Assembly: GCA_965237415.1 (NCBI GenBank)
Contig: CBDEFM010000001.1
Coordinates: 224,001 to 288,000 of the forward strand
Reading direction: 5' to 3'
Source: Alphaproteobacteria bacterium
Lineage (GTDB): Bacteria > Pseudomonadota > Alphaproteobacteria > UBA828
DNA: 64,000 bases
Within the stretch, counting starts at the first letter, position 1; each line of letters opens with the position of its first letter. The notes beneath the pieces were generated by a model. That model saw only the letters and a list, made by a program, of their open reading frames with translations. It did not search any database and was not told the DNA's origin. Position numbers and translations under genes: made by a program. Below, piece by piece: positions 22,690 through 28,829 of the stretch.

Positions 22690-23063
22690 TCAGCCCTTCA
22701 CTGCGCCGAAGGTGAGGCCGCGAACCAGGTAGCGTTTCACAAAGAAAATCAGGACAAGCACCGGCACGCTCTGGAAGATGCAGGCGGCCGCGACCTGCGG
22801 CCACAGACCCTTGGGGTGCCCCACCAGAGACGGGATCATCGCCGTGAACGTGCGGTCCTCGCCTCCCGTGAGGACCAACGCGAACAAAAGCTCGTTCCAG
22901 GAGAATATCAGGACGAAAATGATAACCGCCACCAGTCCCGTGTATGTCATCGGCAACGCGATTTGAAAGAACACGCGAAACGGACCCGCACCGTCGAGAA
23001 AGGCTGCCTCCTCCACCTCCCGAGGGACGTCGTCGAAGAATGATTTCATCATCCAGACCAATA
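22690..23063 (-). pseudogene. 5'-truncated carbohydrate ABC permease (MalG-like)
   Basis: EEAAFLDG, SWNEL, GLTFGAVKG; cut exactly at the IS21 end (23064). Confidence 0.85.
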
Positions 23064-23200
23064 TGTCAACGGCGGCGAGATTATGTACCGGCGCGGCGGC
23101 GCAAAGTTGTGCCACGGGCTGGGTGGCAGCTTGTCCCTGTAGATCCTATGAGGCGACTCGGCGAGCGGCGCTACGGTGCCGCCGGCCAGGAATCCTCAAC

Positions 23201-24394
23201 ATGAGACACGAGATGCCCCCAAGTAGCGACATCGTCGCGTCGGTCGGCGCGGAGCACAACACGCTGTACGTCGCGATCGAGATAAGCCGGAAGAGTTGGG
23301 TGGTTGGGATCAAGAGCCCGGCGAGTGAGCGGATCGGCCTGCACTCGCTTGCGGCAGCGGACGTCGTAGGTCTTCTGATCGAGCATCAGCAGACCAGGGC
23401 CGAACGCGCGCTCGGCCGTGAAGTGCGTGTTCTGTGCTGTTACGAAGCGGGCTATGAGGGGTTCTGGCTGGCGCGCTGGCTGGACCGAACGATGTCTGTC
23501 GAGACGGTCGTGCTCGATCCTGCGAGCCTTTTGGTGAACCGAAAGGCGAAGCAGCGCAAGACGGATCGGATCGACGCCAGGAAGATGGTGCGCGCGCTGC
23601 TGGCGCACGACCGGGGCGACGCGGCGGTGCTCAGCCGGGTGCGGATACCGAGCGTTGAGGAGGAAGACCGCAAGCGATTGCTCCGGGAGCGCCGGCGCCT
23701 GGTGAAGGAGCGGACATCGCTGACCAACGCGGTCAAAGGGCTCCTGAAGCTGCCCGGCATCTTCGACCTGCAGCCCCGCGCCAAGGGCTTCGAGGCCCGG
23801 TTCGCCGAAGTGAGGACCGCATACGGATCGACGTTCCCGCCGTGGGCCCGGCAGGAGATCCTGCGCCTTGCGGAGCGGTTGTCCCTCGTGGAGCGCCAGA
23901 TCGCGCAGGTCGAGGCCGAGCGCGACGCGATCGTCCGCCAGGGCGAGGCTCTCGCGGTGCCGGTGGCGCCCGAGGGAAGCGATGCGCAGGCGGCGGCGAG
24001 AATGGCGACGCTGACCCGGTTGAAGGGGATCGGCGAGAACGACGCGACCCTGCTGACGCACGAGATCTTCTATCGCGGGTTCCGCAACCGCCGGGAGCTC
24101 GCGAGCTGGGTTGGTATAACGCCAACCCCTTGGGCGAGCGGGGACACGCAACGCGACCAGGGGATCAGCCGTGACGGTCCAGCCTGGATCCGGGCTCAGC
24201 TCGTTCAAATGGCGTGGCGCTGGTTGCGCCATCAGCCAGACAGCGCGCTTAGCAAATGGTTCGAAGACCGAACCGCGGGAGGCCGGGGACGAATCCGTCG
24301 TGTGATGGTCGTAGCGCTCGCCCGCAAGCTGCTCATCGCTCTCTGGCGGTTCTGTGAGACCGGTCTCGTGCCGACAGGCGCCAGGCTCGCCTGA
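23201..24394 (+). CDS. IS110 family recombinase/transposase
   Basis: AIEIS, YEAG, KTDRID (DEDD-type RuvC with first acidic residue E); GIG..A, GITPTPWASG, ALARKL. Confidence 0.92.
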   Translation: MRHEMPPSSDIVASVGAEHNTLYVAIEISRKSWVVGIKSPASERIGLHSLAAADVVGLLIEHQQTRAERALGREVRVLCCYEAGYEGFWLARWLDRTMSVETVVLDPASLLVNRKAKQRKTDRIDARKMVRALLAHDRGDAAVLSRVRIPSVEEEDRKRLLRERRRLVKERTSLTNAVKGLLKLPGIFDLQPRAKGFEARFAEVRTAYGSTFPPWARQEILRLAERLSLVERQIAQVEAERDAIVRQGEALAVPVAPEGSDAQAAARMATLTRLKGIGENDATLLTHEIFYRGFRNRRELASWVGITPTPWASGDTQRDQGISRDGPAWIRAQLVQMAWRWLRHQPDSALSKWFEDRTAGGRGRIRRVMVVALARKLLIALWRFCETGLVPTGARLA

Positions 24395-24587
24395 TCCTGA
24401 GACCGCACTGTTCCAGTCCGGCCGGACGCGGCCGGCGCTGGGCCGGGTGGTGAGTGGCCGACCGTGGACAGGGCAGAAAGACGCCGCCCCGTAGAAGGGT
24501 CCCGCCTCCGGAACGCTGTGCCCGCAGCAAGCGGGATTGGGGGACGGATCCGGCGCATCGGCGCCGGAAACCGCCCGAATAAAAGTT
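24395..24587 (+). ncRNA. Predicted bridge/seek RNA region of the IS110 (continues at 25622-~25747 after the IS1595 insertion)
   Basis: CCGTGGACAGGG (24462-73) is the reverse complement of the reconstructed target; ATAAAAGT (24579-86) matches the donor junction; hairpin ccggcgc-atcg-gcgccgg. RNA ends unknown. Confidence 0.7.
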
Positions 24588-25613
24588 GGCTCAATTCGCG
24601 AATCATATGCGCTACCTCGTCACGGCGGCGGCGAGGCAGGCGCGATCATTGGCGCCGGGGGCGAGGCCGACGAGGTGGAACCAGCTCAGATAGTTGTCCA
24701 GATAGCGGGTGGCGACCCCGCGGCGAGGTCGCAGGAAGTCCTTCCTCCGGCTGTGGCGGCTGTTCACCGTCTGCACATGCAGATCGCCCCGAACCCGTTC
24801 CCCAATCGACCGGTTGAGTGCTTCGTGGCTCACCCCGAGCGCGGCGGCGCACGGCGGGTAGCTCGCGCCGCCGTCGGAGACCAGCAGGGCGTCCCTGGCG
24901 AGCACCGGATCGAGGGCGGCCGTGAGGGCCGTCGCGTCAACCCTGGGCAGCACCGCGCTGAACGTCGTCCCGCTCCGGTCCGCTGCCATGAGAACCGGCA
25001 CCTGCTCGCGCGAGAGGCCACGCTTCTTCGCCTTGCCGCCCCGCCGCCGTGCCTTGCGCCCCAGCTTGCGCGCCCCCTTCCGGCTCTCCAGCACATAGGT
25101 CTCGTCCGCTTCCACGATCCCCTTGAGCACCCCCGAACGATGACGGGCCGCCGCCAGAAACCGATGACGCCAGCGGAACGCCGTGCTCACCGCCACATCG
25201 CAGCGCTCTGCCGACGCCTTCACCGTCTCCCCCTCCGCAAGCGAGGCCCCGAACGACAGCCAGCGCTCCTTGTGGTGCAAGCCCGACAGCGGGGTGCCGG
25301 TTAGCGCGTTGAAGGTCCTGCCGCAGCCTTTGCATTGGTAGCGCCGAAGACCACGTGCCTTGCCCCGTGAAACCGCCCCCTCCCGCGCGCAATGCGGACA
25401 GCGCCGGGCCTCGTCCACAGCGAGTTCGATCGCCGCCTTCGACGCCTCGCCCGTACTCCGGCCAGACAGAACCGCCCAGTGCCTCGCGCCGCTGTGCCCG
25501 CGTCAGCCCGCTCGCCGCCGAAAGCCAGCCCTGAAAATCCTGACTATCCATGACCAAACCTCCTGAGATTCGGGCCATTCTACCAACGATGCGTACGATT
25601 TGCGAATTGAGCC
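24588..25613 (-). mobile_element. IS1595-family element
   Basis: 23-bp TIRs GGCTCAATTCGCGAATCATATGC / GGCTCAATTCGCAAATCGTACGC (3 mismatches); 8-bp TSD TAAAAGTT at 24580-87 and 25614-21. Confidence 0.92.
24612..25551 (-). pseudogene. IS1595 transposase with a +1 frameshift near 25476
   Basis: MDSQDFQGWL... in one frame joins CPHC...CKGC, VEADETY, SDG, VNSRHS in another. Confidence 0.8.
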
Positions 25614-26302
25614 TAAAAGTTGGGCATCCGCACGGTCGTGCGACCCATGCGAGAAGCGTTCCGACCCGGCAAGACGCGCCGCCGATCTGGCCAACCAAAG
25701 GAGACAAGACATGCTCGAGACATAGCGTGCATCGCACCTTGACTTCTGTTGCCTCATAAAAGTCCACGGGAGGGACCCGCGCGCGCGGGTCGACGCGCCC
25801 TGTGCGCGGCTGGCGGCGGCCCGCGCGTGGGTGGGGCCTATGGGCCCACGGGGACAAGCGGGGGGTTATTCGGACGGGCGCTGGCGTCGCGATCGGCTCT
25901 GCCTGAGCCGGTAGCTGTCTGCGTTCATCTCCAGGATATGGACATGGTGGGTGATGCGGTCGAGCAGCGCGCCGGTGAGGCGCTCGCTGGCGAAGACCGT
26001 TGTCCATTCCTGGAAGGGCAGGTTTGAGGTCACGATTGTGGCGCCGTTTTCGTAGCGCCGGCTGAAGACGTCGAACAGCAGTTCGCTTCCGGTCTGCGAG
26101 AGGGGCACGTAGCCGAGCTCGTCGACGATCAGGAGATTGACCCTGGCGAGCTGGTCCTGGAGGCGGAGGAGCCTCTTCTCGTCGCGCGCCTCGATCATCT
26201 CGTGGACCAGGTGAGAGGCGGTGGTGAAGCGCACGGAGAGGCCCTTCTGGCAGGCGGCAAGCCCGAGGGCGAGCGCGACATGCGTCTTGCCGACGCCTGA
26301 CG

Positions 26303-26773
26303 GAACAGCCACACACTGCCCGATACCAGGGCGGTCCGACGAAGATCCACTACCCCTTCCACCCCCGCACGGGCCAGCGCGTGGAAGTGGTTCGGCGCCA
26401 CCGCTTCAAGGGGACCATGATCTACGTCGTCCGCCAGCCGGATGGCACGCTGGCGCAGATACCGACCTGGATGTGCTTTCCAGACGCGGCGGCGATGACG
26501 GTGACGGATCAGCCGCGGATCGCGCTGGACGCCCTGCGCGACCTCCGTTCGGACATCGACGCTGTTCTACCATCGCCCTCCCGCATGGATTTGGGAGGGC
26601 GACATGGGAAGACAGGGAGAGCTGTTGGAACTACTGGAGCCGGGTCCGGCACTCACGCCGGCGATGCGAGGGGCGGTAATCCCGATACTGGCGGCGCTGC
26701 TGCTCGAAGCGGCAGCGAACCCGACGGAGGACATGGCGGACGGGACGGCCACGGAGAAGGAGGCGGGCGATGA
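26303..26773 (+). CDS. DUF5372 / Y4bD-like accessory protein lacking its start codon in the integrated state
   Basis: IHYPFHPRTGQRVEVVRR...DGTLAQIPTWM; frame open to the element's left end; family assignment from memory of the motif. Confidence 0.6.
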   Translation, partial: EQPHTARYQGGPTKIHYPFHPRTGQRVEVVRRHRFKGTMIYVVRQPDGTLAQIPTWMCFPDAAAMTVTDQPRIALDALRDLRSDIDAVLPSPSRMDLGGRHGKTGRAVGTTGAGSGTHAGDARGGNPDTGGAAARSGSEPDGGHGGRDGHGEGGGR

Positions 26774-26789
26774 ACAAGATCGCGCCTGA
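26604..26789 (+). CDS. Small hypothetical protein upstream of the recombinase
   Basis: RBS GGGAGG before ATG; 61 aa; overlaps the recombinase start. Confidence 0.55.
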   Translation: MGRQGELLELLEPGPALTPAMRGAVIPILAALLLEAAANPTEDMADGTATEKEAGDEQDRA

Positions 26790-28829
26790 CCATCTGGCGC
26801 GCGAGGCGGTCGTCTACATTCGGCAGTCGACGCCGGACCAGCTGCGGCACAACCACGAGAGCCGCCGTCGTCAGTACGGCCTTGCGGATCGGGCTCGCGG
26901 TCTGGGCTGGGACGAGCCCGTGATTATCGACGAGGATCTCGGCCGCTCTGGAGGCGGAACGTCGCGGCCGGGCTTCGATCGGCTGCTGCTGGCGATCTGC
27001 GAAGGGCGCGTCGGCATCGTGCTGTCGCTGGAGGCTTCGAGGCTCGCTCGAAACGGCCGCGACTGGCACACGCTGCTGGAGTTCTGCGCGCTTGTGGGCT
27101 GCCTGCTGGGCGACGAGGACGGCTTGTATGATCCTCGCCTGCCGAACGACCGTCTATTGCTGGGTATGAAGGGGACGCTGTCGGAGATGGAGCTCTCGAC
27201 GCTGCGCCAGCGCTCGCTCGAGGCGCTGCGCCTGAAGGCGTCCCGTGGCGAGCTATTCCTCAGCGTCGCGGTGGGCTACGTGAAGGTCCGATGCGACCGG
27301 ATCGCCAAGGATCCCGACCGGCGCGTGCGTGAGGCAATCGATCTCGTGTTCCGCAAGTTCGCGGAGTTCCGGAGCATCCGCCAGGTCCACCTCTGGCTGC
27401 GGCAGGAGGAAGTGCTGCTGCCGGCCGTCAGGATCGTTGGCAAGGAGCGCCATATTGTCTGGAAGCCGCCGGTCTACGGCACCGTCCACAAGCTGATGAC
27501 CAACCCCGTCTACGCCGGCGCGTACGCGTTTGGCCGGACGGAGAGCCGCGTGACCGTCGAGAACGGACGCAAGCGCGTCACGCGCGGCTTTCGCCGCGAT
27601 CGCGCGGACTGGGACGTGTTGATCCGCGATCACCACGAAGGCTACGTTTCCTGGGACGAGTACGAGAGGAACCAGCGTCTGATCGCCGACAACGCCAACT
27701 GCGGGGCTTGATGGCAAGGGGCGCCGTGCGCCGCGGCGATGCGCTGCTCGCGGGCCTGCTGCGCTGCGGACACTGCGGCCGGCGTGTGCACGTCCACTAC
27801 AGCGGCACCAAGGGGTACTGCGTCCGTTACGGCTGCCAAGGCGCGCATGTCAACCACGGCACCAGGCCGTGCATCGCCTTCGGCGGCTTGCGCGTGGATA
27901 CTGCGGTCGGCGATGCAGTGCTGCGACTGCTATCTCCGCTCGGCGTCGAAGCGGCGCTGGCCGCCATCGAGACCCGTGAGAGCGACAACGCCGAGATCCG
28001 ACGGCAGGCGGAGCTGGCGCTGACGCAGGCGCGCTACGAGGCCGATCTGGCACAGCGCCAATACGATGCCGTCGATCCAGCTAACCGCCTTGTCGCGGCC
28101 GAGCTGGAGCGACGGTGGAACGACCGGCTGGCGGATGTGCGCCGGCAGGAGGAGCGGCTCGCCGCCACTGCGGCCGCCCGTCCGGAGGCACCGTCATGCG
28201 CGGAGAAACAGCGCTTGATGGCGCTGGGCGATGATCTCTCGACGGCGTGGTCGCGCCCCGATGCCACCGCCGAGACGCGCAAGGCCATCCTGCGCGCGGT
28301 TCTGGAGGAGATCGTCGTCACGCTGGCCGATGGCTGCGTTGACCTTCTTCTCCACTGGCGTGGCGGCGACCACACGCGTCTGAGCGTGCCGCGCAACCGT
28401 AGGGGACAGCATCGCTGGGCGGCGAGCGCCGAGGTGGTCGACCTGGTTCGCGGACTGGCGAGGCAGCTGCCGGACGGCGCGATCGCGGCCACGCTCAACC
28501 GCCTCGGCAAGAAGACCGGGCGAGGCAACTCGTGGACGGAAGCGCGGGTGCGCACCTTCCGCAATAGCCGTGGCGTTGCCGTCTTCCGATCAGGCGAGAT
28601 GGCGGAGCGGGGCGAGCTGACGCTGACCGATGCCGCCGCACGGCTCGGCATCAGCAAGATGACGGTGCTGCGGTTGATTGCGGGCGGCACAATCGACGCC
28701 ACGCAGGTGTGCAAGGGAGGGCCATGGGCCATCCCGGAGGCGCTGATAGACGCCCTGTACGGCACTGACCTGCGCCAATCGCGCCCGCTAACAGCCGATC
28801 CGAACCAGGAACAGCTGGATTTTCAATAA
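26770..28829 (+). pseudogene. Large serine recombinase (resolvase + recombinase + Zn-ribbon + HTH), frameshifted near 27705
   Basis: YIRQST (catalytic Ser), D-GRSG, SRLARN, LRCGHCG, C-terminal HTH; split into ORFs 26770-27711 and 27708-28829. Confidence 0.85.

Follow-up and report, generated by a model that had tools for sequence, protein, structure and literature searches.

Insertion sequences of the IS110/IS1111 family choose both their target and their donor through an RNA guide, as has been published since 2024 (PMC11208160, PMC11187229), and in 93% of the IS1111 elements of ISfinder this RNA is predicted in the right end (PMC11208160). Some of the described targets are themselves mobile. 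ISEc21, of the IS110 family, inserts in the transposase genes of IS3-family elements (PMC11187229, section 12), and IS4321/IS5075 target the terminal repeats of the Tn21 family (Partridge and Hall 2003, cited in PMC11208158 and PMC11208160), so insertion sequences of this family that target other transposons have already been published and are not new in principle. Here we describe an IS110-family element in a 64,000-nucleotide (nt) stretch of an alphaproteobacterial genome (UBA828 lineage; GenBank assembly GCA_965237415.1, contig CBDEFM010000001.1, positions 224,001 to 288,000), hereafter the window. Our preferred explanation, to which we assign a probability of roughly 0.85, is that this is an IS1111-type IS110 element sitting at an IS21 end, that its RNA carries two target guides reaching an AG core, and that this particular copy is most likely dead.

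The window element shares with the IS1111 group (ISEc11, ISKpn4, ISPst6 and ISPa11; PMC11187229 and PMC11208160) its sub-terminal inverted repeats and its combination of a short left end with a long right end. Further common features are an RNA downstream of the gene for the transposase, in which the top-strand match comes first and the matches overlap at the insertion point (PMC11187229, section 9), and orientation-specific insertion into repeated sequences without duplication. It differs from that group in its AG core, in its use of an IS21-family end as target, and in a transposase of 393 amino acids as against 330-350; its repeat of 8 (to 10) base pairs (bp) is also shorter than the usual 11-13 bp (PMC11187229), although within the range of 7-17 bp given in PMC11208160. 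Like IS621 (PMC11208158), it has an RNA with two loops, a left guide for the bottom strand and a right guide for the top strand, a stem-loop between these guides, a 2-nt core and a DEDD plus serine recombinase. The RNA of IS621, however, is placed in the left end and begins with the left guide, followed by the stem-loop and then the right guide, and CT serves as core. In the window element the RNA belongs to the right end, the guides come in the opposite order and AG serves as core; the two proteins are alike only in their C-terminal domain (E 6.9e-4). The natural target is another mobile element, as it is for ISEc21 and IS4321/IS5075, but unlike the targets reported for those elements it lies in the non-coding interval that separates istB from the terminal repeat of IS21-family elements, and the host insertion sequence keeps both ends and its genes.

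Counted with one copy of the AG core, the IS110-family element (23141-25760, plus strand) is 2620 bp long, of which 1586 bp are its own once a nested IS1595-family element and its duplication are subtracted. It lies 77 bp within the right end of the IS21-family element, and after removal of IS1595 its non-coding ends measure about 70 nt on the left and about 330 nt on the right. At the left junction ..GTCCCTGT is followed by AGATCC, and at the right junction ..ATAAAAGT is followed by CCACGG. Read from this single copy, the junctions (..CCCTGT AG/ATCC.. and ..ATAAA/AG TCCACGG..) are compatible with a shared GT as well as with a shared AG. The same genome has three IS21 ends without an insertion, which read GTCCGCGTAGTCCA(C/T)GG with one AG each, the empty site appearing as GTCCGCGTAGTCCACGG once and as GTCCGCGTAGTCCATGG twice. 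The genome's three occupied ends carry GTCC(CT/CC)GTAG and then ATCC, and the two of them besides the window copy read GTCCCCGTAG before ATCC. In addition, contigs from three of four public sequencing runs (X14, X1 and X5) link position 23140 straight to 25761, with two letters that fit either side. Because the empty IS21 ends and the metagenome contigs carry a single AG, the duplicated core is AG and not GT. The uninterrupted target is CC(G/C)(C/T)GT-AG-TCCA(C/T)GG, and there is one AG in the empty sites and one at each junction, that is, insertion occurred without target duplication. AG is likewise found at both junctions in all 23 copies (12 distinct flank pairs) of a distant, 51%-identical family. 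A single-copy reading can mislead in such a case: the junctions here agreed with two 2-nt overlaps, and it took the empty sites to decide between them.

Relatives of the element were sought in one genome per species, and 80 of 167 were taken in, with protein identities of 48-98%. Downstream of the transposase gene, 35 of the 81 sources (the window and 80 loci) carry a common scaffold, giving 36 records; the sources outside these 35 are truncated copies or more distant families that do not fit the search patterns. In the terms of the window, the scaffold runs ..GGCCGA, a block of nine variable bases, GGGCUGAAAGACGCCG, a second variable block of eight bases whose last two are AG, and A(A/U)GGG... 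We aligned 22 non-redundant RNAs. Their consensus fold comprises 56 pairs, and at 28 of these both sides have changed in a compensatory way. Paired cells make up 95.0% of this alignment as against 30.9-49.2% when partners are slid by 1-3 columns, and in 500 shuffles not one of five measures ever came up to the observed value.

The RNA so described is about 210 nt long and lies in the 3' non-coding region of the IS110 element, where an nhmmer profile of it matches 24443-24616 and 25614-25669. Helix 4 (24449-59 with 24498-506) closes an internal loop whose two sides are the nine and the eight variable bases, and helix 6 (24509-17 with 25655-63) together with helix 3 (24445-48 with 25664-67) encloses a second domain. 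In the near-constant cap hairpin, helix 5 does not vary among the 22 homologues; A24475 in the cap loop is private to the window, and contigs of three runs have T at this position. Rfam gave no match at E up to 1 between 22000 and 27000 of the window, and only two chance-level matches (E 1.6 and 3.7) to the intact RNA of locus L018. A candidate helix closing the donor loop, UGCCC with the GGGCA after the donor guide, fails in loci L025 and L044.

The two variable blocks follow the flanks of the element. In the window, eight bases of the right guide, CCGTGGAC, are complementary to the top strand G-TCCACGG at 25762-25769, and the remaining base, A24470, is variable and unpaired opposite the first core base. 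The left guide CCCCGTAG agrees with the window flank CCCTGTAG at 7 of 8 positions and with the genome's two other occupied ends at 8 of 8. The top-strand match thus stands 5' of the bottom-strand match in the RNA, and the matches overlap in the target. Across the homologues, the 5' block was scored in reverse complement against the right junction, and the 3' block as it stands against the left one, allowing the same small offsets for an element's own junctions and for foreign ones. Right guides score a mean of 7.50 out of 10 against their own junctions over 22 guide classes, with 14 of the 22 at 8 or more; against foreign junctions the mean falls to 4.28 (standard deviation 1.31, 462 pairs), and only 2.2% score as high. 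For left guides the own mean is 6.71 out of 8 over 21 classes (14 at 7 or more), compared with 3.69 in 420 foreign pairs, of which 1.4% reach 7. This comparison is conservative because classes with similar targets are among the foreign pairs. The clade holds at least 22 natural guide sets, and the 51%-identical family with 23 copies conforms as well, the right-hand consensus of its flanks matching that family's guide. The sequence-only reading of this DNA, made from the window alone, had proposed an IS110/IS1111-type element with readable target and donor guides in a downstream non-coding RNA and had named covariation of guide and target across homologues as a check; the covariation found here supports that proposal. 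The left target guide at 24487-94 had been overlooked.

Several observations on the guides stand apart from this comparison. Contigs of the public runs show a G-to-A change at 24464 that turns the guide into CCATGGAC, which fits the TCCATGG variant of the IS21 end, and the same runs include contigs that part from the window exactly at 24461-62 and carry different guides from there on. In other genomes, the elements at L042-L047 have guides ..CACCC(T/C) and (A/C)TACTCAG and sit in palindromic repeats CTACTCAG/GGTGAGGG...CCCTCATCCCGAGTAG, with four copies in one genome; they fit the repeat-targeting habit known for the IS110/IS1111 family. Within the 23-copy family (L075-L097), the right guide is a perfect match to one flank, AGGCCCCTGCA in L090; most copies sit in a site that is one base shorter, AGCCCCTGCC, and three have a variant left guide ending in GG rather than AG. 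A handshake-type pairing for the GGG that follows the right guide was rejected, these bases being near-constant while targets and ends vary.

The second domain of the RNA carries the matches to the element's own ends. Left donor guide and right end are identical in 21 of 22 homologues, in the variants ATAAAAG, ATAAGAG, ATACAAG, ATATAAG and ATGAAAG, and the earlier assignment of ATAAAAG to this role holds. This agreement is partly by construction, as the search for right ends used the donor guide's first five letters; the same right ends are given by an independent pattern and by a fixed distance from an invariant TTGAC. For the left end, the conserved segment GGGATT at 24533-38 is probably the right donor guide. 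All 22 homologues have the segment GGGAT(T/C), ATCC stands at the start of 20 of the 21 known left ends, and in the 51%-identical family, with its 23 copies in one genome, a left end ATGCC is accompanied by GGGCAT at the equivalent place in the RNA. GGATC at 24546-50, which had also been put forward as a donor guide, is not upheld: it occurs in only 5 of the 22 homologues while left ends are constant, and its two G belong to a covarying helix, helix 8, in which pairs 157/186 and 158/185 show compensatory changes.

The transposase gene encodes both an N-terminal DEDD/RuvC-like domain (Pfam PF01548, DEDD_Tnp_IS110, 31 bits with a cut-off of 29) and the C-terminal IS116/IS110/IS902 domain (PF02371, Transposase_20, 54 bits). 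NCBIfam NF033542 ('IS110 family RNA-guided transposase') is a further match, with 185 bits where the cut-off is 140, over profile positions 2-338 of 343. The G--P----SG motif with the catalytic serine, so worded in PMC11187229, section 6, is present as GITPTPWASG, which aligns with GLTPRRYESG of the IS621 and ISCro4 chains. An alternative in-frame ATG upstream, at 23201, would give 397 amino acids. In homologues an AGGAGA box lies ahead of the second ATG; at 23202 the window has T where contigs of three runs have G, and the box is spoiled.

In the mechanism that we propose, the 5' side of the target loop supplies the 9-nt guide (24462-70), whose partner would be the top strand on the right of the cut; the 3' side supplies the 8-nt guide (24487-94), whose partner would be the bottom strand on the left of it. 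Both guides extend to the AG core. The second domain would recognize the right end and core through ATAAAAG and, probably, the left end through GGGATT. By analogy with IS621 and the IS1111 seekRNAs, the transposase would bind this RNA, and the complex would join the circularised element to the IS21 end and exchange strands at AG without duplication.

The IS21 end is used repeatedly. Of eight occupied IS21-like ends in three assemblies, always with the insertion at the same position, three belong to the window's own genome (the window copy and two partial ones) and five, at L018, L019, L020, L039 and L057, to two other assemblies. A blastn search for further copies of the IS21 right end in the window's own genome placed window-type ends at five other places on C2, and three of the six full-length ends of this type are occupied. 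At L018 the site lies just past the stop codon of a full IstB, with an IstA-like gene (rve and Mu-transposase C-terminal) adjoining. The insertion spot is between the istB stop codon and the terminal repeat, in one fixed orientation. The earlier proposal that the element is aimed at an IS21 end is borne out by this fixed position in the right ends of the family. In a limited literature search we found no published report of an IS21 end as target, and the supplementary tables of PMC11208160 and PMC11187229, where ISfinder elements are given with their targets, may hold members of the clade. As separate observations from the same genome, a 74-76% relative of the IS110 element (L004/L005, C2:3591897-3592473) lies in an IS21 end at the same position, and about 320 bp into this copy its left end occurs a second time, nested in the first; the two copies are fragments. 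A 100%-identical copy of the truncated IS21 piece is found at C2:3767987-3768225, where the IS110 site is empty and the outer 73 bp of the end are 92% identical to those of the window.

The copy in the window is most likely an inactive, dead relic, because the IS1595 element has landed in a guide and splits helices of the RNA, and the ribosome-binding box is mutated. The IS1595 transposase (24612-25418; Pfam PF12762, DDE_Tnp_IS1595; NCBIfam NF033547) is enclosed by inverted repeats of 23 nt (24588-24610 and 25591-25613) and flanked by an 8-bp duplication, TAAAAGTT, at 24580-87 and 25614-21. This element sits inside the left donor guide and parts the strands of helices 3 and 6 by 1034 bp. A form free of IS1595 exists elsewhere, in contigs of three runs that link 24579 to 25614. 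A profile search with the RNA core over the 4.7-Mb genome returned the split window copy only. The other copies in this genome are all fragments without RNA gene or right end: a left part of 617 bp (C2:1588054), a piece from the interior (C2:3047164), and the two nested left ends of the 74-76% relative (C2:3592386 and 3592063).

The sequence-only reading had rejoined the flanks at GT, which gave a contiguous target CCCTGTCCACGG within a gtccct..agggac hairpin, and had seen in 24462-73 a single 12-nt guide running across both sides of the core. The strings on which it drew are where it put them (CCGTGGACAGGG at 24462-73, ATAAAAGT at 24579-86 and GGATC at 24546-50), its 12-mer is an exact match and the sole one in the window with up to 1 mismatch, and one copy taken alone fits GT and AG equally. 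We nevertheless consider a GT core scarcely credible. Empty sites and metagenome contigs read GTAGTCC, so that the true target has AGT between the two halves that were joined, and the contiguous CCCTGTCCACGG does not occur as a site: in the whole genome it is found only as the complement of the RNA gene itself. The 12-mer stands in part, CCGTGGAC being the right guide, whereas A24470 is unpaired and the GGG at 24471-73 is near-constant scaffold in all 22 homologues (two positions invariant, the third kept in at least 90%), whatever the target. The left flank is matched by the separate sense-strand guide at 24487-94, and the apparent match across both sides of the core was a product of the wrong rejoining and three scaffold G. 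As for the hairpin, it is present in the CT variant of the site and missing from the empty sites, which read GTCCGC. A different objection would be that the flank matches are not RNA guides but arose by chance, or are captured target DNA that is recognised as DNA. Rfam has no family for the RNA, which is known here from its sequence alone, and this would suit such a view. Set against it are the arrangement of the matches, a sense match and an antisense match placed on opposite sides of an internal loop that a compensatory helix closes, their change with the flanks in 21-22 independent guide classes, and the published signature of the family (PMC11208158; PMC11187229, section 9), which together make it extremely improbable.

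That the element is still mobile despite IS1595, with its RNA supplied by read-through, by assembly of two halves or by the 5' half alone, seems to us unlikely. All four guide segments lie upstream of IS1595, since its duplication leaves TAAAAGTT on either side of it, the transposase gene has an open frame of 393 amino acids, and IS1111 seekRNAs of only 70-100 nt carry target matches (PMC11187229, section 4). However, helices 3 and 6, which covariation supports, need strands that flank the 1034-bp interruption, the genome is without a second right-end copy or a second RNA, and the ribosome-binding box is altered at 23202 relative to contigs of three runs. The reading that we prefer, a now probably inactive IS1111-type element with two target guides reaching AG, has points weighing against it too. 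The transposase is longer than the 330-350 amino acids given for the IS1111 family (PMC11187229, section 6), and its matches to IS621 (E 6.9e-4) and ISCro4 (E 1.2e-5) are distant and confined to the C-terminal part. The left guide mismatches its own flank once in the window and twice in its close relatives L018 and L020. The register is not rigid, the best right offset being +1 in 8 and -1 in 2 of 30 records; the first L021 record, L026, L029, L032 and L057 score only 3-6 on the right, and in L026 and L032 the right guide fits, by eye, only at offset +2. Within the fold, the base of the donor domain is not placed because helix 7 never varies. The right donor guide amounts to an invariant segment and one compensating family, and L038, with a left end ATGC, lacks a compensating change in the GGGAT(T/C) segment. 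Finally, the RNA is read from its gene, the metatranscriptome runs X14 and X17 contain the element but as contigs cannot show transcription, strand or ends, and the public-run contigs include no circle junction. X17 covers the RNA gene almost not at all and has no bearing either way.

Table 1. Positions of the features discussed, in window coordinates (position 1 is the first letter of the window)
Feature	Position	Strand	Details
Outer 77 bp of IS21-family right end	23064-23140	-	Begins TGTCAACGG; severed from the remaining IS21 by IS110
IS110 boundaries	23141..25760	+	Contigs of X14, X1 and X5 skip 2620 bases; empty sites in own genome agree
AG core, left copy	23141-23142	+	One AG in the empty sites (GTAGTCC)
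Left sub-terminal inverted repeat TATGAGGC	23147-23154	+	Conserved in homologues
IS110-family RNA-guided transposase gene	23213-24394	+	393 amino acids; Pfam and NCBIfam
Bridge/seek RNA, 5' portion	24445-24587	+	5' strands of helices 3, 4 and 6, target loop, most of donor domain
Right target guide CCGTGGACA	24462-24470	+	Nine-base variable block between constant scaffold; covaries with right flank
Cap hairpin GGGC(A/U)GAAAGACGCCG	24471-24486	+	Near-constant; separates the target guides; includes GGG
Left target guide CCCCGTAG	24487-24494	+	Same sense as left flank and core; would pair with bottom strand
Candidate right donor guide GGGATT	24533-24538	+	Complement of left end ATCC plus wobble to core G
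GGATC	24546-24550	+	Two G end helix 8, rest in internal loop
Left donor guide ATAAAAG	24579-24585	+	Last five right-end bases plus AG core
Nested IS1595-family element	24588-25613	-	1026 bp; inverted repeats, duplication, transposase
Bridge/seek RNA, 3' portion	25622-25669	+	Helix 10 hairpin; 3' strands of helix 6 (25655-63) and helix 3 (25664-67)
Right sub-terminal inverted repeat GCCTCATA	25751-25758		Partner of TATGAGGC, 8 bp
AG core, right copy	25761-25762		Duplicated core
IS21-family inner part	25763-26312	-	Contains C-terminal IstB fragment 25866-26312

The right end of the element also holds a Shine-Dalgarno box and a minimal open reading frame (mini-ORF), GGAG ... ATG CTC GAG ACA TAG, at 25700-25725 on the plus strand. 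The mini-ORF is present in 15 of the 22 homologues as against a mean of 0.35 in shuffles, and is also seen in L018-L050 and L075-L097. Its layout is a Shine-Dalgarno box, an ATG, 0-3 codons and a stop; the start and the stop are kept, while the codons and the identity of the stop vary, and in the 51%-identical family the ATG is followed directly by TGA. From the ATG it is 23-27 nt to a (C)TTGAC near the right end, or 81 nt in L030, which has an insertion there. The TTGAC, at 25739-25743 on the plus strand in the window, is invariant in 22 of 22 homologues and precedes the right end's CAT by 11-12 nt. It resembles a -35 box, and by eye there is no acceptable -10 box 16-18 nt further on across the joined ends.

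We advance only tentatively, and with more doubt than belief, the idea that the clade constitutes a separate, uncharacterised lineage. Such a lineage would be marked by a transposase of about 393 amino acids, an AG core, a reversed loop order and guides of 9 and 8 nt, with several guides aimed at mobile or repeated DNA (IS21 ends, palindromes) and an extra control element made up of the ribosome-binding box and the start-stop mini-ORF.

Around the IS110 element the nesting is four deep: IS1595 lies in IS110, which lies in IS21, which lies in an ATP-binding cassette (ABC) transporter gene. The last is an ABC-type permease gene (BPD_transp_1) at 22690-23063 that is shortened by the IS21 end. The IstB fragment at 25866-26312 matches Pfam PF01695 at profile positions 100-236 of 238, and the gene is thus without the first 99 profile positions. 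Neighbouring genes have ordinary oxidoreductase, transporter and recombinase functions, and no resistance gene is present in the window neighbourhood. At 26770-28829, two overlapping frames resemble one large serine recombinase split in two, the first with Resolvase and Recombinase domains and the second with Zn_ribbon_recom and HTH_17.

The element leaves knowledge of the mechanism of this family unchanged. The nesting of IS1595, IS110, IS21 and transporter gene is a small record of mobile elements serving as landing pads for one another. The locus offers a clean natural example of how guide and target are read for an IS1111-type bridge RNA, by a rule checked on 21-22 independent guide sets, which is of use for the annotation of such elements and for the choice of new programmable recombinases.

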